Assembly (NCBI RefSeq): GCF_022985615.1
Contig: NZ_CP094965.1
Location: 90,001 to 122,000 of the forward strand
DNA length: 32,000 nt
Source of the DNA: Candidatus Karelsulcia muelleri
GTDB taxonomy: Bacteria > Bacteroidota > Bacteroidia > Flavobacteriales > Blattabacteriaceae
Direction: 5' to 3'
The position numbers were made by a program, and so were the translations under genes. Below, in pieces: positions 2,765 to 21,899 of this stretch; positions within the stretch are counted from its first letter, which is position 1, and the number at the start of each line of letters is the position of its first letter. The notes under the pieces were generated by a model. It searched no databases, was not told the origin of the DNA, and was given only the letters and a program-made list of their open reading frames with translations.

Positions 2765-2886
2765 TAAATATTTATTTGTTTAAAAAATTTTTGTATAACT
2801 AACTTAAAACTTTTAGAAATAGGACGATTTTGATTTTAGAAATATAAATAGAATAAATTGGTTTTAAAATAGAGAAATTCATAATT

Positions 2887-3020
2887 CCTAAGATAGATGG
2901 TACCATGGTACACTGGTACCCTGGTACCCTAAGATAGATGGTATTGTATGGTCCCGTCCCATTGTATATGGTACACTACACGAGGTACACTACACAACTA
3001 ACTAACTAACTAACTAAGAT
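2887..3020. repeat. GGTACC-core repeat patch plus an (AACT)5 microsatellite abutting tRNA-Phe
   Basis: cctaagatagatggta occurs at 2887-2902 and 2928-2943. ggtaccatggtacactggtaccctggtaccc follows, ggtacactacac occurs twice, and aactaactaactaactaacta runs from about 2996 to 3017. Confidence 0.85.
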
Positions 3021-3024
3021 GGTA

Positions 3025-3096
3025 TGGTACCTCCTGGAATTGAACCAGGGCCTAACGGATTTTCAGTCCGTTGCTCTACCTCTGAGCTAAGATACC
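3025..3096 (-). tRNA. tRNA-Phe (anticodon GAA)
   Basis: The reverse complement folds as acceptor ggtatct/aggtacc, D arm tagctcagaggtagagc, anticodon loop ctGAAaa, T arm cctgg-ttcaatt-ccagg, discriminator A. No encoded CCA. Confidence 0.9.
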
Positions 3097-7196: not shown

Positions 7197-8357
7197 ATGC
7201 AACCTAAAAAAAGAAAAATAATAATTTTTGATACGACATTAAGAGATGGAGAACAAGTACCAGGTTGCAAACTAAACGAAAAAGAAAAAATTATAATTGC
7301 TAAAAATCTCGAACTCTTAGGAGTAGATGTAATAGAAGCAGGTTTTCCAATTTCAAGTCCCGGAGATTTCCAATCAGTTAGAGAAATTTCAAAACATATT
7401 TCCAATACTATAATATGTGGACTAACAAGAGCTAAAAAAAAAGATATAGAAATAGCTGCACTAGCCTTAAAAGATGCCAAACGTCCTAGAATTCAGACTG
7501 GAATAGGTACTTCTGAGTCTCATATAAAACAGAAATTTCAGAGCACAGAAGAAAAGATATTAGACATTGCATATGAGTCAGTAAAGTATGCCAAAAAATT
7601 TGTAGAAGATATAGAATTCTATGCAGAAGATGCTGGAAGAACCGAAAACTTGTTTTTAGCAAAAGTTTGTGAAAAAGTTATCCAAGCAGGAGCAACAGTT
7701 ATTAATTTACCAGATACTACTGGATATTGTTTACCAGAAGAATATGGGAAAAAAATAAAATTTTTAATAGAAAATGTACCGAATATAGACCAAGTAACAC
7801 TCTCAACTCATTGCCATGATGATTTGGGATTAGCAACTGCAAATTCAATAGCAGGTATTAAAAATGGGGCCCGACAAGTAGAAGGAACTATAAATGGAAT
7901 TGGGGAAAGAGCCGGTAATACACCATTAGAAGAAATAGTAATGATATTAAAAAAAAAGAAAGAATTAAATTTTTTTACTAATATTAATACAAAAATGTTA
8001 TATACGATTAGTAAATTTGTTTCTCAATATACTGGAATGTTTGTCCCCCAAAATAAAGCGATAATAGGAAAAAATGCCTTCTCTCATTCTTCTGGGATTC
8101 ATCAAGATGGAATGATAAAGAATAGGGGCACATATGAAATTATAAATCCTAAGGAAGTTGGATATAAAACCTCTTCCCTAATATTAACTGCTCGTAGTGG
8201 ACGATCTGCGTTAATATATAGATATAAAAAAATAGGTTATGTATTTACAAAATATCAAATTGATACAATCTATCAAATCTTTTTAATATATGCGGATAAA
8301 AAAAAAGAAATTTCTGATGAAAACTTAAAACAAATTATAAATAGTGTAAGAAATTAA
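7197..8357 (+). CDS. leuA: 2-isopropylmalate synthase, short form (catalytic TIM barrel only)
   Basis: 386 aa. [24 protein letters not shown] and GERAGN motifs. Heads the leuA-C-D-B operon. Confidence 0.9.
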
Positions 8358-8366
8358 GAAATTGAG

Positions 8367-9782
8367 ATGGCACTGACACTTTTTGAGAAAATCTGGAATT
8401 CACATGTAATAGATACAATAAATAAAAAAACAGATATTCTATATTTAGATAAACAATTTATTCATGAAGTAACTAGTCCACAAGCTTTTGAAACATTAGA
8501 AAAAAGAAACATTCCAATATTCAGGCCAGAAAAACTTATTGCAACTGCAGATCATAATGTTCCTACTAAAAATCAACATTTACCAATTAAAAATGCTTTA
8601 TCTAGGTTACAAATAAATTTACTTAAAAAAAATTGTCTAAAAAACGGAATTAAATTTTTTGGTTTAGGACATAAATATCAAGGAATTGTCCATGTAATAG
8701 GACCAGAATTAGGAATTACTTTACCCGGAATGACTATAGTATGTGGAGATAGTCATACTTCAACTCATGGGGCTTTAGGGTGTCTGGCTTTTGGAATTGG
8801 TACAAGTCAAGTAGCGATGGTAATGGCTTCTCAATGCTTATTGCTTAATAAACCTAAAAAAATGCGAATTATTCTAAAAGGTAACTTACAATTAAAATTA
8901 GGAGTGACACCAAAAGATATAATATTATATATAATATCGAAATTAGGTACTGGAGGAGCAACTGGATACTTTGTAGAATACTCAGGTCCAGTAATTGATG
9001 AGATGAAAATGGATGGCAGAATGACTATTTGTAATATGAGTATTGAAATGGGGGCAAGAGGAGGAATAATAGCACCAGACAAAACTACTTATAATTATCT
9101 AAAAGATAGAGCCTTTGCTCCGAAAAAAGAGAATTTCTTAGCAGCTAAATTATTTTGGAAAACTTTGAAAACGGACAAGAAAGCTCATTTTGATAAAGAA
9201 TATGAATTTGATGTCTCGAAAATAGAACCGATGATAACATATGGTACGTCTCCAAATATGTGTATAAAAATAGATGATTGTATCCCAAAAAATCTCCCAA
9301 AAAACTCTGAAAATTATTTTAATAAATCGTTAAAATATATGGGCTTTAAACCCGGAGAATATTTAATAGGAAAAACTATTAATTATGTTTTTATTGGTAG
9401 TTGTACAAATTCTAGAATTGATGATCTAAGGTTAGTATCAAAAATAGTAAAAGGAAAAAAAGTTGCTAAAAATGTACAGGCAATGATAGTACCAGGATCC
9501 ACACAAGTCTTTAAACAATTAATTAAAGAAAAAATAGATCTTATATTAAAAGAGTCGGGTTTTGATTTACGTCAACCTGGATGTTCTGCTTGTTTAGGAA
9601 TGAATGAAGATAAAATACCTTCTGGAGAATATTGTGTTTCGACCTCAAATCGGAATTTTGAAGGACGTCAAGGAAAGGGCTCACGTACGTTATTGACAAG
9701 TCCATTAGTCGCAGCTATTACTGCTTTAAAAGGTAAAATAGTAAGTATTAAAAAATATATGAAAAAATATGGAGAGATTTAA
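8367..9782 (+). CDS. leuC: 3-isopropylmalate dehydratase large subunit
   Basis: 471 aa. Aconitase-family motifs GDSHT, GSCTNSRIDDLR and CSACLGMN...STSNRNFEGRQG. Confidence 0.95.
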   Translation: MALTLFEKIWNSHVIDTINKKTDILYLDKQFIHEVTSPQAFETLEKRNIPIFRPEKLIATADHNVPTKNQHLPIKNALSRLQINLLKKNCLKNGIKFFGLGHKYQGIVHVIGPELGITLPGMTIVCGDSHTSTHGALGCLAFGIGTSQVAMVMASQCLLLNKPKKMRIILKGNLQLKLGVTPKDIILYIISKLGTGGATGYFVEYSGPVIDEMKMDGRMTICNMSIEMGARGGIIAPDKTTYNYLKDRAFAPKKENFLAAKLFWKTLKTDKKAHFDKEYEFDVSKIEPMITYGTSPNMCIKIDDCIPKNLPKNSENYFNKSLKYMGFKPGEYLIGKTINYVFIGSCTNSRIDDLRLVSKIVKGKKVAKNVQAMIVPGSTQVFKQLIKEKIDLILKESGFDLRQPGCSACLGMNEDKIPSGEYCVSTSNRNFEGRQGKGSRTLLTSPLVAAITALKGKIVSIKKYMKKYGEI

Positions 9783-10353
9783 GACCAGAATTAGTCAATG
9801 TCTTCCTTTAGATATAGATAATATTGATACTGATCAAATTATTCCAGCTAGATTTTTGAAAATTTCCTCTAGATTAAATTTATGCAAAAATTTATTTAGA
9901 GACTGGAGGTACTATAAAAATGGAAAAAAAACAAAATTTATATTAAATAATCCCAAATATACTGGAGAAATTTTAATTACAGGTAAAAATTTTGGGTGTG
10001 GTTCAAGTCGTGAACATGCCGTCTGGGCAATTATGGATTATGGAATTAAAGCAATAATTTCAAATTATTTTGCTGATATTTTTAAACAAAATGCATTAAA
10101 TAATGGGTTATTAGTCATAGAACTTAAACAAGATATTGTAAATTCTTTATTGAATAATATCTTAAAATTCCCTAAGAGTAAAATAAAAATTAATTTAAAA
10201 AAAGAATATATAGAATTTAAAAAAACAAAAATAAAATTTAAAATAAATTCTTATAAAAAAGAATGTTTTCTTAAAGGATATGATGATATCGATTTTTTAC
10301 TTAATTTAAAAAATAAAATAATTAAATTTGAAAACAAACTATTTTATAAATAA
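9769..10353 (+). CDS. leuD: 3-isopropylmalate dehydratase small subunit
   Basis: 194 aa. DNIDTDQIIPARFL and GKNFGCGSSREHA. Overlaps leuC by 14 nt. Confidence 0.9.
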   Translation: MERFKTRISQCLPLDIDNIDTDQIIPARFLKISSRLNLCKNLFRDWRYYKNGKKTKFILNNPKYTGEILITGKNFGCGSSREHAVWAIMDYGIKAIISNYFADIFKQNALNNGLLVIELKQDIVNSLLNNILKFPKSKIKINLKKEYIEFKKTKIKFKINSYKKECFLKGYDDIDFLLNLKNKIIKFENKLFYK

Positions 10354-11493: not shown

Positions 11494-11559
11494 TTTAATA
11501 AAATTTATTTACAAATTAAAAAAAAATATAGATAATATTTTAATTTCACCTTCATATTT

Positions 11560-11915
11560 TCTATTGAATATTTTATATTGAATATTTTCTATTGATCTTG
11601 GAAAATTTGTAAAAACGAATATTTTCTATTGATCTTGGAAAATTGGTAAAAACCAGGAAACATAGGAGCTAGCTATTTTATATGAGCTAGCTATTTTATA
11701 TGAGCTAGCTATTTTATATGAGCTAGCTATTTTATATGAGCTATTAAGAACTGCACTGCATCAGCTATTTTAAGAACTGCATCAGCTAGCTATTTAACTG
11801 CATCAGCTATTGGGGTTGATGCAGTGTTTTTCTGTGATGAAAAGATAGACTTATGATAGACATAGACTTAGATAGACTTACTTAGATAGATAGACTTAGA
11901 TAGACTTACTTATGA
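11560..11915. repeat. Composite tandem-repeat spacer downstream of leuB
   Basis: 37-bp unit x2 (11580-11616 and 11617-11653). 18-bp gagctagctattttatat x4 (11666-11737). aactgcatcagct variants (11748-11812). cttagatagactta-type units (11846-11915). Confidence 0.9.
11797..11831 (+). terminator. Hairpin plus T-run, a possible intrinsic terminator
   Basis: actgcatca (11797-11805) pairs with tgatgcagt (11817-11825) across an 11-nt loop. It is followed by g then ttttt. It sits about 300 nt after the leuB stop, so the assignment is tentative. Confidence 0.35.
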
Positions 11916-11940
11916 AAGACTTATATAATCCTAAGCCTCT

Positions 11941-12048
11941 GATATTATTCAAATTCCAATAAAAAATAAATATATAGATTCTCTAAATGTTAGTAATGCT
12001 ACTGCTATTATACTTTTTGAAATATATCGCCAAAAATGTTTTACTTAC
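11941..12048 (+). pseudogene. C-terminal relic of a SpoU/TrmH-family RNA 2'-O-methyltransferase
   Basis: My translation in frame 1 gives DIIQIPIKNKYIDSLNVSNATAIILFEIYRQKCF...*. This matches the SPOUT motif-3 pattern (IPM..x.SLNVS.AaaI.lyE). The same frame has stops at 11887, 11926 and 11932, and upstream sequence is repeat arrays. Confidence 0.6.
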
Positions 12049-12100
12049 TTACTTAAAAAACAGTTAGTTTTTGTATTTACTTAAAAAACAGTTTTTGTAT
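12049..12100. repeat. Duplication straddling the rnpA stop codon
   Basis: ttacttaaaaaacagttagtttttgtat (12049-12076) is followed by ttacttaaaaaacagtttttgtat (12077-12100). The second copy starts exactly at the rnpA stop. Confidence 0.85.
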
Positions 12101-12469
12101 TATATTTTCAAAACAGTTTTTTAGTTCATAAAAATTATGTAGTTTTTTTTTTAAATACATGAATATAATATAATATATTTTTTTTCTTTTAAATGGAATT
12201 ATTTTTTTATTCAATTGATAAGACCTTCTCATTAATCTTTTTATTCTATTTCTTTGATAAGATTTTATAATTTGTTTTTTTGAGACGAAGAAAGCTATTT
12301 TTACTTTAAAAGTAGAAGTAGAATTATATTTAGAAGTAGAAGTTTCTAGGTAGGCTACCTTCAATAAATTATTTTCTATTTTTTTACCATTACGAAATAT
12401 TGTATTTACTATTTTTTTTTTATTTATAATCTCTTTTTTTTTTAATTTATTGTTAGTAAAAAAATGCAT
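12077..12469 (-). CDS. rnpA: RNase P protein component (start re-set)
   Basis: KSYQRNRIKRLMRRSY is the RNR-type RnpA motif. The plausible start is MHFFTNNKLKK (ATG at 12469-12467). The upstream 34 codons of the track ORF read through repeats. Confidence 0.8.
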   Translation of the reverse strand: MHFFTNNKLKKKEIINKKKIVNTIFRNGKKIENNLLKVAYLETSTSKYNSTSTFKVKIAFFVSKKQIIKSYQRNRIKRLMRRSYQLNKKIIPFKRKKIYYIIFMYLKKKLHNFYELKNCFENIIQKLFFK

Positions 12470-12802: not shown

Positions 12803-13624
12803 ATGAAAACTATTGAAAATACATTATTTAATTTAGAATTAGAAAATTTGTTATTTAAAAAAGAAGATAAATTAGGAGCTATTATCCAAATAACAGCAGG
12901 ACCTGGAGGTAATGAAAGTTGTGATTGGGTATTTTTATTACATAGGATGTACACTCGGTGGGCTGAAAAAAATAATTTTAAAATTAAAAAGGTTTATTTT
13001 TTTCGAGGAGAATTAGGAGGGTTTAAAACGATTACTTTTAAAATTCAAGGAATGTATGCTTTTGGATACTTAAAAGGTGAAAATGGAATCCATAGATTAG
13101 TGAGGTTATCTCCCTACAAAAATAAATCTAAAAGACACACTACTTTGGCTTCAGTATACATATATCCTTTAAGAAAGAAAGAAATTAAAATATCTATTAA
13201 AGAATCAGACATAAAATGGGAAACTTTTAGATCCAAAGGATCTGGAGGGCAAAATGTTAATAAAGTAGAAACTGGTGTAAGACTGATTCATAAACCCACT
13301 AATATAATTATAGTAAATATGGAGACTCGTTCTCAATACAATAACAAAATTAAAGCCTTACGTTTACTAAAAGAGAAATTATTTTCTCTCGAAATTAATT
13401 CCCAAAGATATAATCTAGAAAAAAATAAATCTCAATCTCAAGAAAAAAATAAATCTCAATGGGGGACACAAATAAGAAATTATATTATGCATCCTTATAA
13501 ATTAGTAAAAGATATTAGGACGAATTATGAAACAACTGATGTAAAATCAGTATTAAATGGTAACATAAATATTTTTTTAAAAAAGTATTTAGATAAAAAT
13601 AAAAATAAAAATAAAATATGCTAA
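12803..13624 (+). CDS. prfB: Peptide chain release factor 2, N-terminally truncated (domain 1 missing)
   Basis: 273 aa. Starts about where canonical RF2 reads ...LDIQAGSGG (here IIQITAGPGGNES.DW). GGQ is present (SGGQNVNKVETGVRL). HRLVRLSPY occupies the position of HRLVR.SPF. Confidence 0.85.
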   Translation: MKTIENTLFNLELENLLFKKEDKLGAIIQITAGPGGNESCDWVFLLHRMYTRWAEKNNFKIKKVYFFRGELGGFKTITFKIQGMYAFGYLKGENGIHRLVRLSPYKNKSKRHTTLASVYIYPLRKKEIKISIKESDIKWETFRSKGSGGQNVNKVETGVRLIHKPTNIIIVNMETRSQYNNKIKALRLLKEKLFSLEINSQRYNLEKNKSQSQEKNKSQWGTQIRNYIMHPYKLVKDIRTNYETTDVKSVLNGNINIFLKKYLDKNKNKNKIC

Positions 13625-16429: not shown

Positions 16430-16692
16430 CTAAAAATAAAAATGAATAGCCAATGTGTTGTGTTGTGTTAGGAAATAATGTTGGTCATTTGGAGATTATT
16501 TTATGTTACAATTTTTCAAGGCTTGGCTTTTTTCAAGGGAATAAAGAAGATAATCTTTTGACAGTGACTATTGGAAGAAAAGGAAGAAAAAAAATAGATG
16601 AGAGTTTTTTGATAAAAAACATAATTTTTGGTAAAAACTTGGTCAAAACATCCTTTAGAGATAGAATTATGGAATATAGTTTTTATTCAATC

Positions 16693-16766
16693 AGATGGTA
16701 CCTTAGATGGTACCTTAGATGGTACCTTACATGGTACCTTACATGGTACCTTAGATGGTACCTTAG
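16693..16766. repeat. (AGATGGTACCTT)6 12-bp array
   Basis: Six contiguous 12-mers. Units 4-5 read acatggtacctt. Each carries GGTACC. Confidence 0.95.
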
Positions 16767-16806
16767 TTAAATTACCTACTTTGGAATGCCTACTTTTGAA
16801 TGGGTT

Positions 16807-16998
16807 GCTGATCTTGCTGATCTTATCTTATCTGATCTTGCTGATCTTATCTTATCTGATCTTGCTGATCTTATCTTATCTTGCTTATCATCTTGCTTAT
16901 CTGATCTTGCTGATCTTATCTTATCTTATCTTGCTTATCTGATCTGATCTATCTGATCTGATCTATCTGATCTGATCTTGCTGATCTTATCATCTTGC
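16807..16998. repeat. GATC-dense composite array (gctgatctt / atcttatct / gatctgatctatct)
   Basis: I count about 15 GATC tetramers in about 190 nt. The top strand is pyrimidine-rich. Confidence 0.9.
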
Positions 16999-17051
16999 AA
17001 AAAATATACTATTTGCTACTTTAGCTCAAAATACTAATAAAGTATATGGAG

Positions 17052-17330
17052 TCACAAGTAGATAAGTAGATATAATATCACAAGTAGATAAGTAAGTAGA
17101 TATAATATAATATCACATCACAAGTAGATACAAGTAAAGTAAAGTATCACAAGTATCACAAGTAAACAAGTATCACAAGTATCACAAGTAAAGTAAAGTA
17201 TCACAAGTATCACAAGTAAACAAGTAAACAAGTAAACAAGTAAACAAGTAAACAAGTAAACAAGTAAACAAGTAAACAAGTAAACAAGTAAACAAGTAAA
17301 GTAAAGTAAAGTAAAGTAGATATAATAGCA
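17052..17330. repeat. cacaagta-family arrays, including (CAAGTAAA)11
   Basis: caagtaaa x11 at 17213-17300. Flanked by gtaaa x3, tatcacaag units and cacaagtagataagtagatataatat copies. Confidence 0.9.
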
Positions 17331-17363
17331 GATCAGTAGTTTTCGCAATATATGATGGTATAA

Positions 17364-17452
17364 TTCCTTAAGGAAGAACCTTAAGGAAGAAGAACCTAAG
17401 AACCTTAAGGAAGAAGAACCTTCCTTAAGGAAGAAGAACCCTTCAAGAAGAG
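17364..17452. repeat. CCTTAAGG-core array (ccttaaggaagaagaa units)
   Basis: Five imperfect units, most carrying the palindrome ccttaagg. Confidence 0.85.
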
Positions 17453-17522
17453 AATAATCCTAATAGACTATATAAGCTATCATATAATAATAAAAAAAAT
17501 AGGAATCTGTAATTCTAAAAAT

Positions 17523-17697
17523 ATTAAGAATAGGAATAGGAAACTCTTAGGAGTAGATGTTAAAAATCTTAATATTAATATTAAGAATAGGAATAGGAAA
17601 CTCTTAGGAGTAGATGTTAAAAATCTTAATATTAATATTAAATGTTAAAAATCTTAATATTAATATTAAATGTTAAAAATCTTAATATTAATATTAA
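17523..17697. repeat. 57-bp unit x2 followed by a 28-bp unit x3
   Basis: attaagaataggaataggaaactcttaggagtagatgttaaaaatcttaatattaat at 17523 and 17580. atgttaaaaatcttaatattaatattaa at 17614, 17642 and 17670. Confidence 0.9.
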
Positions 17698-17990
17698 GAA
17701 TAAGAATCTTAATATTAATATTAAGAATAAGAATAAGAATAAGAATAAGAATAAGAATCTTAATATTAATATTAAGAATAAGAATAAGAATAAGAATAAG
17801 AATAAGAATCTTAATATTAATATTAAGAATAAGAATAAGAATAAGAATAAGAATAAGAATCTTAATATTAATATTAAGAATAAGAATAAGAATAAGAATA
17901 AGAATCTTAATATTAATATTAAGAATAAGAATAAGAATCTTAATATTAATATTAAGAAAATAAGAATAAGAATAAGAATAAGTTTAATAT
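17568..17990. repeat. Array of about ten copies of an 18-nt perfect palindrome separated by variable (AATAAG)n
   Basis: cttaatattaatattaag equals its own reverse complement; first copy 17568-17585, last 17939-17956. Hexamer spacer lengths are roughly 1.5, 5.5, 5.5, 5.5, 4.5 and 2.5 units. Confidence 0.9.
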
Positions 17991-17996
17991 TAAATT

Positions 17997-18225
17997 AGTA
18001 ATAGGAATAGTAATAGGAATAGTAATAGGAATAGTAATAGGAATAGTAATAGGAATAGTAATAGGATTAGTAATAGGAATAGGATTAGTAATAGGAATAG
18101 GATTAGTAATAGGAATAGGATTAGTAATAGGAATAGGAATAATATAGGAATAGGAATAGGAATAGAATAATAGTTAGTAATAGGAATAGGATTAGTAATT
18201 AGTAAGTAGGAATAAATATAGTAGG
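17997..18225. repeat. (AGTAATAGGAAT)n 12-bp array grading into an 18-bp aggattagtaataggaat variant
   Basis: Read directly: about 6 copies of the 12-mer, then about 4 copies of the 18-mer, then degenerate units. Confidence 0.9.
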
Positions 18226-18235
18226 AAATTAGAGT

Positions 18236-18650
18236 ATCAGTATTATAGTATAGAGGATATATAATATGATAATACTATATATGATAGTATAATATATACT
18301 AATAGGATAGGATAATATGAGATAGTATCATAGATATCATATGATAGTATCCTATCATATGATAGTCTAATATGAGTATACTAATACTAATAGGATAGGA
18401 TAATATGAGATAGTATCATAGATATCATATGATAGTATCCTATCATATGATAGTCTAATATGAGTATACTAATACTAATAGGATAGGATAATATGAGATA
18501 GTATCATAGATATCATATGATAGTACTATCATATGATAGTCTAATATGAGGATACTAAGAGAAGATACCTTAAGAGTTGATGATGAGATAGTATCATAGA
18601 TATAGAAGATCATAGTTGATAGTTAAAGATAAGATATCATAGAAGAGAAT
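18236..18650. repeat. 88-bp minisatellite (about 3.3 near-identical copies) with degenerate flanks
   Basis: aataggataggataatatgagatagtatcatagatatcatatgatagtatcctatcatatgatagtctaatatgag... recurs at 18301, 18389 and 18477. The unit contains the palindromes atcatatgat and ctatcatatgatag. Confidence 0.9.
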
Positions 18651-18693
18651 TGAGTATACTTATTGGCAGAAGATTTCAAATTCTTTTTGTTTA

Positions 18694-19259: not shown

Positions 19260-19670
19260 ATGGAGATAATTGGGACAGTAAAAAAAATCTTAGACTTGCA
19301 GGTCTATAAAAACAATTTTAAAAAAAGAGAACTTCTTATCAAAACTGAAGAACAATATCCTCAAATTTTAATAATAGAATTTATTCTTGATAAAACTAAA
19401 TTATTAAATTCATTGAAAAAAGATGACAAAATAAAGATATTTATTAATTTAAAAGGAAAAAAATGGACTACTAAAACAGGTGAAACAAGATTTTTCAATT
19501 CGATTCAAGGCTGGAAAATAGAAAACATTACAGAAAAGAAAAAAAAAGAAAAAAAAGAAAAAAAAGAAAAAAAAGAAAAAAAAGAAAAAAAAGAAAAAGA
19601 AGAAAAAAAAGAAAAAAAAGAAAAAGAAGAAAAAAAAGAAAAGAATGAATTTGATGAATTACCTTTTTAG
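19260..19670 (+). CDS. DUF3127-type OB-fold SSB-like protein with a (KKE)n linker and acidic LPF tip
   Basis: 136 aa. MEIIGTVKKIL...EEQYPQ...FNSIQGWKIE resembles the Bacteroidetes DUF3127 pattern (MEI.GK....E.QYPK...W..). The C-terminus NEFDELPF resembles the SSB tip DDDLPF. Confidence 0.7.
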   Translation: MEIIGTVKKILDLQVYKNNFKKRELLIKTEEQYPQILIIEFILDKTKLLNSLKKDDKIKIFINLKGKKWTTKTGETRFFNSIQGWKIENITEKKKKEKKEKKEKKEKKEKKEKEEKKEKKEKEEKKEKNEFDELPF

Positions 19671-20161
19671 GTAACCTAATTACCTTTTTAGGTACCTTAG
19701 GTACCAAGGTACCTTTTACCAAGGTACCTTTTACCAAGGTACCAAGGTACCAAGGTACTACCAAGGTACTACCAAGGTACTACCAAGGTACTAACTACCA
19801 AGGTACTACCAAGGTACTACCAAGGTACTACCAAGGTACTAACTACCAAGGTACTAACTACCAAGGTACTAACTACCAAGGTACTACCAAGGTACTACCT
19901 ACCAAGGTACTACCAAGGTACCTTTTACCAAGGTACTACCAAGGTACTACCAAGGTACCTTTTAAGGTAGGTACCAAGGTACCTTTTAAGGTAGGTACCA
20001 AGGTACCTTTTAAGGTAGGTACCAAGGTACCTTTTAAGGTAGGTACCAAGGTACCTTTTAAGGTAGGTACCAAGGTACCTTTTAAGGTAGGTACCAAGGT
20101 ACCTTTTAAGGTAGGTACCTTTTAAGGTAGGTACCAAGGTACCTTTTAAGGTAGGTACCTT

Positions 20162-20165
<4 letters not shown>
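19657..20165. repeat. GGTACC/GGTACT minisatellite block starting inside the stop region of the ssb-like gene
   Basis: aattacctttttaggta x2 (19657-19673 and 19678-19694). 11-bp ccaaggtacta units with 15-bp variants (about 19744-19935). 24-bp ccaaggtaccttttaaggtaggta x7 or more (about 19946-20160). Confidence 0.95.

Positions 20166-21899
<1,734 letters not shown>

Follow-up and report, generated by a model that had tools for sequence, protein, structure and literature searches.

Tandem arrays with a GGTACC core in a planthopper Sulcia genome: probable local expansion at gene ends rather than one tRNA-derived family

Three spacers of a 32-kb stretch of the genome of Candidatus Karelsulcia (Sulcia) muelleri, hereafter the window, are occupied by tandem arrays whose units contain the palindrome GGTACC. 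Array 1 abuts the 3′ end of the tRNA-Phe gene, array 2 lies between the genes for tRNA-Met and smpB, and array 3 separates a DUF3127 gene from groEL (Table 1). We argue that these arrays probably arose in this lineage when replication slipped or switched template at gene ends able to form hairpins, and that GGTACC recurs by way of two unrelated ends which both carry AGGTA/TACCT arms. The initial annotation of this DNA had instead suggested a single family derived from the acceptor end of tRNA-Phe and its flank, which would have spread by copying between loci or by a sequence-specific process acting on a palindromic site.

The window belongs to the Sulcia lineage of a Pyrops planthopper (Fulgoridae). 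Its GroEL and LeuS are 99% and 96% identical, respectively, to those of planthopper Karelsulcia muelleri, whose genomes measure ~145–160 kb. The three Pyrops Sulcia genomes in the literature are 155.8–156.7 kb long (PMC10333215). What we say about gene content covers the window, that is, 32 kb of a 156-kb genome, with a G+C content of ~25%, six tRNA genes, and the genes serS, leuS, tyrS, leuACDB, rnpA, prfB, obg, lpdA, smpB, DUF3127, groEL, miaB, sufBCDS and infB. The window was compared with a sister genome (L090, CP094964.1), which was assembled independently and is 99.4% identical to it, and with other relatives. The serS/tRNA-Phe/leuS region was examined in five relatives, among which L086 is the closest outgroup, and the array 3 site in L087, L088, L089, L002 and L001, the last being the closest outgroup there. 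Gene order is conserved across all the loci examined. Tandem repeats were detected with Tandem Repeats Finder (TRF), tRNAs with ARAGORN and Rfam, and protein domains with Pfam.

The excess of GGTACC noticed in the initial annotation is genuine, and the strings and coordinates that it quoted for the three blocks are all correct. The window contains 37 copies, 33 of them within the three arrays, whereas models of order 0, 1 and 2 predict 1.1, 1.3 and 2.9, respectively. They are found in three clusters (four copies at 2899–3026, six at 16697–16757 and 24 at 19691–20154) and at three isolated positions (163, 29473 and 31268); the annotation had counted more than 20 GGTACC and many GGTACT in 19657–20165, where there are indeed 15 GGTACT beside the 24 GGTACC. 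No other hexamer with three or more G/C forms clusters, defined as three or more copies in 40 nt, in three different spacers. It is important to note that this high count reflects the amplification of three seeds, so that the number of independent events is three, not 37. The units are short and arranged head-to-tail (8 nt × 4.1 at 2898–2930, 12 nt × 6.2 at 16693–16766 and periods of 11–48 nt across 19690–20159); in all three arrays they are contiguous, with no unique spacers between the repeats as a CRISPR array would have. Arrays 1 and 2 are present almost base for base in the sister genome, which also has array 3 with a different copy number; since that genome was assembled independently, the arrays are not assembly artefacts. 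With the arrays masked, four copies of GGTACC are observed in the window against 1.0–1.5 expected, and ~135 kb of sequence from relatives (eight loci, seven relatives) contain eight against 4.9–7.8 expected. These are isolated coding or tRNA sites, and their number is within the spread of the other palindromic hexamers with four G/C (0–5).

The origin of array 3 can be followed from one relative to the next. In L087, L088 and L089 the spacer is only ~35–45 bp long and reads GAA TTA CCT TTT TAG GTAA(g/t)TTAATAAACGCATCTTATC..GATAAGGTGCGTT; a seed, TTACCTTTTTAGGTAA(g/t)TTAA, is located at the stop codon of DUF3127 and there is no GGTACC at all, as is also the case at this site in L002. An ancestral hairpin takes its left arm, TTACC(T), from the last codons of DUF3127, GAA TTA CCT TTT TAG (E-L-P-F-stop); in this hairpin TTACCT pairs with AGGTAA across the stop codon (TTACC-TTTTT-AGGTAA); a second ancestral hairpin has a 13-bp stem. 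The L087 spacer is predicted to fold into two hairpins (−14 kcal/mol, z = −6.6). We refer to these seeds as hairpins and not as terminators because no canonical intrinsic terminator was detected in the ancestral spacer.

The L001 site reads ACCTTTTTAGGT|ACCTAAAAAGGT-ACCTAAATTAGGT-ACCTAATTACC and contains three GGTACC. Its first 24 nt are a perfect palindrome centred on GGTACC (predicted DNA folding energy −20.2 kcal/mol, z = −7.1); once reverse-complemented, the second half is identical to the ancestral first half. L087–L089 have ACCTTTTTAGGTAA(G/T)TTAA at this place. The bases that are new in L001, CCTAAAAAGGT, exactly reverse-complement the adjacent local ACCTTTTTAGG, as in a quasipalindrome or strand-switch event, where new sequence is templated by its ancestral neighbour. 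The window shows further growth at this site, to ~500 bp. The array starts with two copies of a 21-nt unit that includes the seed hairpin (TACCTTTTTAGGTAACCTAAG), followed by the words AAGGTACC, AAGGTACTACC and AAGGTACTAACTACC and then by 24-nt units (TACCAAGGTACCTTTTAAGGTAGG); AAGGTACCTTTT and AAGGTAGGTACC also occur, and all words are built from the arms AAGGTA and TACC(TT). The array folds strongly on itself (z = −4.5 to −5.1), and it comprises 24 GGTACC cores in the window versus 17 in L090. The word parse did not find the tRNA flank, ATCT..TAGG, anywhere in array 3. The presence in outgroups of a local seed and of a local inverted-duplication precursor therefore indicates that array 3 is of local origin and independent of tRNA-Phe. 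The sequence ATCTATCTT is found in the flank of tRNA-Phe and again where array 3 ends; it was considered as a sign of homology and rejected, since the copy in array 3 descends from the second ancestral hairpin (CATCTTATCTTTGATAAGG).

The genes on both sides of array 3 have repeats of their own. The groEL stop region contains ATGTTTTTGCTTTTAC × 2.1 in the window (20205–20238) and GAATGATGTAAA × 5 in L002 (11631–11690), which duplicate the last groEL codons and their flank. The DUF3127 protein ends in ...NEFDELPF and has a K/E-rich tract encoded by an in-frame 9-nt repeat (12 copies, 19534–19642). The acidic C-terminal tip of bacterial single-stranded DNA-binding protein (SSB) is DDDIPF; the DUF3127 end resembles it, and the K/E tract is at the position of the SSB linker. 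A search of PDB sequences with DUF3127 returned only a weak SSB match (E = 0.38). In L002, DUF3127 (11822–12370) contains in-frame arrays of 6-, 9-, 12- and 18-nt units and is 182 aa long, versus 101–116 aa in the other relatives.

Array 1 is a different case, in which the gene end is that of a tRNA. The tRNA-Phe gene ends in ...GGAGGTACC followed by A, the acceptor 3′ strand being AGGTACC and the discriminator the A at 3025; CCA is not encoded. The GGTACC at 3026–3031 belongs to the gene itself, which the repeats directly adjoin. In five relatives the gene ends in ...GGTACCA with no repeats after it, and this is the point where the window has its insertion. The global alignment to L086 places 131 bp exactly between GGTACC(A) and ATCT; relative to the more distant L083 the insertion amounts to 174 bp, and the BLAST alignment breaks at the last base of tRNA-Phe (L083 9912/9913). 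After GGTACCA the relatives continue with TCTTTTGATAGGAATTT (L086), TCTTTTTT (L084), TTTATTTT (L083) or TATTTTT (L085), and the longer reads across the junction (TCTTTTGATAGGAATTTATCTATTTTAAAAC, TCTTTTTTAAA, TTTATTTTTT and TATTTTTAAAA in L086, L084, L083 and L085, respectively) show a plain AT-rich flank. On the tRNA strand, array 1 runs GGTACCA-TACCA-TCTTAG-(TTAG)n ... TACCATCTATCTTAGG-GTACCAGG-GTACCAGT-GTACCATG-GTACCATCTATCTTAGG; more fully, (TTAG)n is followed by two copies of TGTAGTGTACC and, later, by ATACCATCTATCTTAGG-GTACCAGG-GTACCAGT-GTACCATG-GTACCATCTATCTTAGG-AATT. The inserted sequence is composed of copies of GTACCA and of the ancestral flank, ATCT..TAGG (ATCTTAGG being flank sequence derived from tRNA-Phe), and the outermost copy, GGTACCATCTATCTTAGGAATT, aligns to the ancestral junction between tRNA end and flank, GGTACCATCTTTTGATAGGAATT. 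The insertion at the exact end of tRNA-Phe and the match of the outermost copy to the ancestral junction thus indicate that array 1 consists of nested duplications of the last 7–8 bases of the tRNA and of ~10 bases of its flank. The tRNA-derived family of the initial annotation therefore holds for array 1, where copies of the tRNA end and flank lie at the 3′ end of the gene, and fails for array 3, whose local seed is found in outgroups.

A similar array exists in L002, where a 17-nt unit repeated 5.8 times (TCAGCTTACGTGGTTGA, 13366–13464) consists of three flank bases and the first 14 bases of tRNA-Leu(GAG) (13454–13527). Since this array arose independently of array 1, tRNA termini appear to be recurrent seeds in the clade. 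We also note that the spacer between tRNA-Phe and serS has a history of gene loss. A gene for a thiamine pyrophosphate-dependent enzyme (PF02775, korB-like) is intact in L084 (9129–9971), a pseudogene in L085 (~9250–9990) and deleted in L083, L086 and the window (2765–3024), so that a gene was lost stepwise where array 1 later arose.

Array 2, two units of which read ACAT in place of AGAT, is identical in the sister genome (L090 16829–16902) and absent from L001, L002 and L087–L089. The ~240 bp on its left have no Pfam match and no Smith–Waterman alignment to the outgroup spacers that scores above shuffles; BLAST against relatives and window and a multiple alignment gave no usable origin, and a search against 1.84 billion proteins returned one weak, low-complexity match (E = 2e-4). 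The minus-strand unit of array 2, AAGGTACCATCT, contains AGGTACCATCT, which matches the ancestral tRNA-Phe end and flank (L086, L084) at 11 of 11 positions. The 11-mer TAGATGGTACC is found exactly in array 1 (2894–2904) and in array 2, and the 10-mer GGTACCTTAG exactly in array 2 and in array 3 (19691–19700). According to a k-mer census, dozens of equally rare 10–11-mers are common to unrelated coding loci of the window; such sharing is at background level, so that the donor of array 2 cannot be assigned. Array 2 may have grown from a third local seed of the same kind or from a short ectopic copy of one of the other two loci. The strings AATTACCT and AGGTAATTTAA, near arrays 2 and 3, were rejected as evidence of homology, being post hoc, AT-rich and not significant by our estimate.

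Table 1. Positions in the window of the three arrays and of the features associated with them.
Feature	Coordinates	Strand	Basis and remarks
Two exact copies of CCTAAGATAGATGGTA (2887–2902, 2928–2943) flanking the run of TGGTACCC (8 nt × 4.1, 2898–2930)	2887..2943	+	TRF, alignment
Array 1, lineage-specific insertion of ~131 bp	2895..3024	-	Global alignment to L086; BLAST break versus L083; repeat families D1–D5
tRNA-Phe(GAA)	3025..3096	-	ARAGORN; Rfam tRNA, 73.2 bits; 3′ end conserved in L083–L086 and L090
Non-repetitive ~240 bp adjoining array 2 on its left	16453..16692		Open in one frame (open reading frame 16453–16770); absent from outgroups
Array 2, (AGATGGTACCTT) × 6.2	16693..16766		TRF; 96% matches
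Two copies of a 19-mer identical to leuA, inside a 57-nt tandem unit	17542–17560, 17599–17617	+	Self-BLAST, E = 0.006
DUF3127 gene	19260..19670	+	Pfam PF11325, E = 1e-23; translation
Array 3	19657..20165		TRF; word parse; precursors in L087–L089 and L001; copy number in the sister genome; self-folding
TTATCTATCTTTGATAAG × 2, duplicated remnant of the second ancestral hairpin, AACGCATCTTATC-TTT-GATAAGGTGCGTT	20162..20197		TRF, comparison with outgroups
groEL	20233..21879	-	Pfam; 99% identity to P0001; convergent with DUF3127, bounds the array 3 spacer

In the mechanism that we propose, noncoding spacers and dead genes would have filled with tandem repeats since the lineage split from its nearest sequenced outgroup, the repeats arising where replication slips, or switches strand or template, at short sequences that form hairpins at gene ends. 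GGTACC would then be what results from joining the two arms of an AGGTA/TACCT inverted repeat; the tRNA-Phe acceptor stem, GGTATCT/AGGTACC, shares with the array 3 site this junction of AGGTA to its complement. For array 1, the last 7–8 bases of the acceptor end ...AGGTACC-A and the first ~10 bases of flank were duplicated over and over just outside the gene. For array 3, the last codons of DUF3127 (TTA CCT TTT TAG) and the GTAA that follows formed a small hairpin; an inverted duplication turned ACCTTTTTAGGT into the perfect palindrome ACCTTTTTAGGT|ACCTAAAAAGGT and created GGTACC; a three-copy mini-array, as in L001, came next, and then growth to the ~500 bp of the window, with a copy number that still changes between sisters. 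Array 2 would have started from a seed or from an ectopic copy and then expanded by slippage between AGAT/AGTT microhomologies. This mechanism would need no sequence-specific enzyme; the process common to the arrays would be a tendency of replication to stall and slip out of register at small GC-containing palindromes when the surrounding DNA is very AT-rich.

The three arrays are part of a larger repeat load. The share of tandem repeats is 9.9% in the window, 11.0% in the sister sequence and 11.5% in L002, which has unrelated units, versus 0–3% in eight other planthopper Sulcia loci; in the window lineage the periods range from 5 to 88 nt and contiguous repeats reach 680 bp. GC-containing perfect palindromes of at least 8 nt are present in seven of 35 repeat families, against 1.5 expected from shuffled units (Poisson tail ~0.001 by our own arithmetic); the cores include AGCTAGCT, CCTTAAGG, CTATCATATGATAG and AAGGTACCTT, among others. 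The tRNA-Met/smpB spacer (16431–18693) is 2.26 kb long and consists almost entirely of tandem arrays, versus 245 bp in L001, where single-copy seeds of several of these arrays can be recognized (for instance gatctgatcttgctgatct and tcacaagtagat). The right half of this spacer (~17.6–18.6 kb) is only 73–79% identical between the window and L090 (16576–18421), which are 99.4% identical elsewhere; this suggests that array turnover is very fast. We had considered that arrays in this spacer disrupted a transfer-messenger RNA (tmRNA) gene; this idea was dropped, since ARAGORN and Rfam detected no such gene, either in the window or, for five relatives, in the spacers beside smpB. The smpB gene is intact, and its tmRNA partner may be encoded elsewhere in the genome or have diverged too far for detection. 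A dead gene has also been invaded: a trmH/SpoU-type methylase gene, which is intact, as two open reading frames, in L001 (17179–17985) and in L086, is degraded in the window (11494–12076) and overrun by arrays, including an 18-mer with a AGCTAGCT core repeated 4.6 times and a unit that comes from one hairpin arm (ACTGCATCA...TGATGCAGT).

Copying between loci, the other route that the initial annotation had envisaged, is possible in this genome: we have documented one ectopic templated insertion, from leuA. The 19-mer AACTCTTAGGAGTAGATGT of the leuA coding sequence (7312–7330), which the leuA of relatives also carries, is found identically in the repeats at 17.5 kb (Table 1). The outgroup spacer reads GGAAACT-ATTATGG there, so that ~15 nt have been inserted at an AACT microhomology. 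The sister genome also holds the leuA fragment, amplified in a different, 31-nt unit (17665; 17831–17920).

Several observations weigh against our proposal. BLAST and shuffled-control alignment to the outgroup spacers revealed no local seed for this array, which moreover adjoins the 240 bp of unexplained sequence described above. The chance that one further array out of ~35 carries GGTACC by composition is ~1% (our own arithmetic, from window frequencies), which makes pure coincidence an uncomfortable explanation. As for array 1, its self-folding is not above that of shuffles (z = −1.1), which weakens the hairpin argument for this array. Last, copy number differs between the window and the sister genome for array 3 and several other arrays, so that ongoing slippage is directly visible for these only, arrays 1 and 2 being unchanged.

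It may be, then, that dispersal was partial, arrays 1 and 3 being local and whereas a template switch mediated by microhomology, with the tRNA-Phe junction or the first part of array 3 as donor, seeded array 2, which was then amplified. We consider this a serious possibility, if not quite an even bet. The match of AGGTACCATCT and the exact matches of TAGATGGTACC and GGTACCTTAG argue for it, as do the leuA insertion, which establishes that ectopic copying occurs here, and the low chance of a third GGTACC array by composition alone (~0.01, as above). On the other hand, 10–11-mers of equal or greater rarity are common to dozens of unrelated coding loci, no homology extends past the repeat unit, two candidate donors fit about equally well and, given the bias towards palindromes, a palindromic hexamer core with four G/C would be GGTACC in about one case in 24. 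An unseen local seed is the somewhat likelier source of array 2.

The single family of the initial annotation, in which the tRNA-Phe 3′ acceptor end and its flank would have been copied to the two other spacers, appears very improbable to us. It would account for a core that is found in three spacers, as no other GC-rich hexamer is, and for the occurrence of AGGTACCA in both the tRNA end and array 3. However, it is contradicted for array 3, the site of which has the seed AGGTAA without GGTACC in three outgroups and lacks the tRNA flank, while the new bases of L001 mirror local sequence and not that flank. We give hardly any credence to the idea that a GGTACC-specific enzyme of the symbiont or the host (a restriction–modification system of the KpnI/Acc65I type, a nuclease or a recombinase) makes or spreads the arrays. 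The core is palindromic (GGTACC is the KpnI/Acc65I site) and recurs at three loci, but it is neither avoided nor enriched outside the arrays, other arrays use other palindromes, and L002, which is just as rich in repeats, contains GGTACC only once in 21.6 kb. All sizeable open reading frames of the window are housekeeping genes and the gene lists of the relatives' loci are alike; no restriction–modification, nuclease or recombinase domain was found in the window or among the called genes of these loci. The sequence-specific process suggested initially is therefore not supported. What survives is a weaker version of it, in which palindromic cores, whatever their sequence, are overrepresented among the repeat units; the leuA copy is in addition a documented transfer between loci.

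A small mobile or dispersed repeat with a GGTACC core, resembling repetitive extragenic palindromes or miniature inverted-repeat transposable elements, would be expected to consist of short, GC-containing palindromic units in intergenic spacers, which is what we see. Yet self-BLAST reveals no consensus between the loci past 10–11 nt, the copies are head-to-tail and not solitary, relatives have no such units elsewhere, and the precursor states are explained by local sequence, so that the likelihood of this hypothesis is close to nil. We also find it most unlikely that the arrays are selected functional elements (terminators, RNA-processing signals 3′ of tRNA-Phe or protein-binding sites). They are indeed located where genes end, array 3 has taken the place of ancestral hairpins between two convergent genes and folds strongly, and the sister genomes do not differ in arrays 1 and 2; but genomes that are 99.4% identical overall make this identity uninformative about selection, the spacers of outgroups are only 50–90 bp long, the copy number of array 3 varies freely, unrelated arrays fill the same spacers in L002 (that between DUF3127 and groEL included), and no T-tract terminator was detected.

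The first steps that we propose for array 3 resemble quasipalindrome-templated mutation, or strand-switch inverted duplication, the model of Ripley which Lovett and colleagues are said to have studied in E. coli. As in that model, an imperfect hairpin (TTACCTTTTTAGGTAA) has become a perfect palindrome in L001, the new half of which is the reverse complement of the old half. However, the model is known from mutation assays and not as the seed of a 500-bp array, and the step considered here is deduced from a comparison of lineages. Array 1 and the tRNA-Leu array of L002 are reminiscent of the tandem duplications with tRNA termini of organelles, such as those of the control region and tRNAs of animal mitochondria and the tRNA-flanking repeats of plastids. 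In both situations, partial copies of a tRNA end and its flank are arranged head-to-tail beside an intact gene; here, however, only 5–17 nt of the tRNA are copied, there are no pseudo-tRNAs, and the genome is that of a bacterial symbiont.

The closest parallel at the genome level is Portiera aleyrodidarum of Bemisia tabaci, in one lineage of which the spacers are expanded and filled with microsatellites (Sloan and Moran 2013, PMC3673631). Like the Pyrops Sulcia, it is an ancient obligate insect symbiont with a tiny, AT-rich genome, in which short tandem repeats occupy, in one lineage, spacers that are compact in sister lineages, and in which repeat-associated indels dominate. The Pyrops arrays have the same characteristics: short head-to-tail units, absence or much shorter length in outgroups, and copy numbers that differ between close relatives (array 3 and several other arrays); the unit can be derived from local ancestral sequence for arrays 1 and 3, and no such derivation was found for array 2. 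Portiera differs by its sharp class of 7-bp repeats, its large rearrangements and the documented loss of dnaQ and other repair genes (PMC3673631), whereas the Pyrops Sulcia has periods of 5–88 nt with none dominant, and no rearrangement in the loci examined. The Sulcia of leafhoppers belongs to the same symbiont species; the majority of its indels lengthen or shorten existing microsatellites and have been attributed to slippage (Waneka et al. 2020, PMC7952229; PMC13345377), with which the mechanism proposed here agrees. The leafhopper genomes, however, have few and short arrays (for example 6-bp units in 8–11 copies), whereas arrays represent ~10% of the Pyrops sequence and form a 2.3-kb repeat spacer.

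It is tempting to go further and to see short GC-containing palindromes as hot spots both for slippage and for a microhomology-dependent copy-paste that moves 15–30-nt fragments of gene ends or coding sequences over 3–14 kb. The transfer from leuA to the spacer and, possibly, one from the tRNA-Phe end or array 3 to array 2 would be examples. We consider this extension rather unlikely; if it were true, the supposedly most stable of insect-symbiont genomes would contain a growing repeat compartment with fast turnover.

As a new element, the tRNA-derived GGTACC family matters little, since it mostly dissolves into ordinary local repeat expansion. The mechanism is ordinary, and what remains is a mildly interesting phenotype of genome instability, about which the searchable literature on planthopper Sulcia genomes contains no mention of these repeats. 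Sulcia has served as the textbook case of genome stasis, yet in one planthopper lineage, and independently in a second one, ~10% of the sequence consists of tandem repeats and spacers are 5–10 times longer than those of relatives. Gene termini (the ends of tRNAs, the stop region of groEL and the C-terminal codons of a protein) provide the material of the arrays, with one clear templated insertion from a coding gene in addition. The comparison of repeat-rich and repeat-poor lineages could bear on what keeps Sulcia stable, a question left by previous work (PMC7952229).

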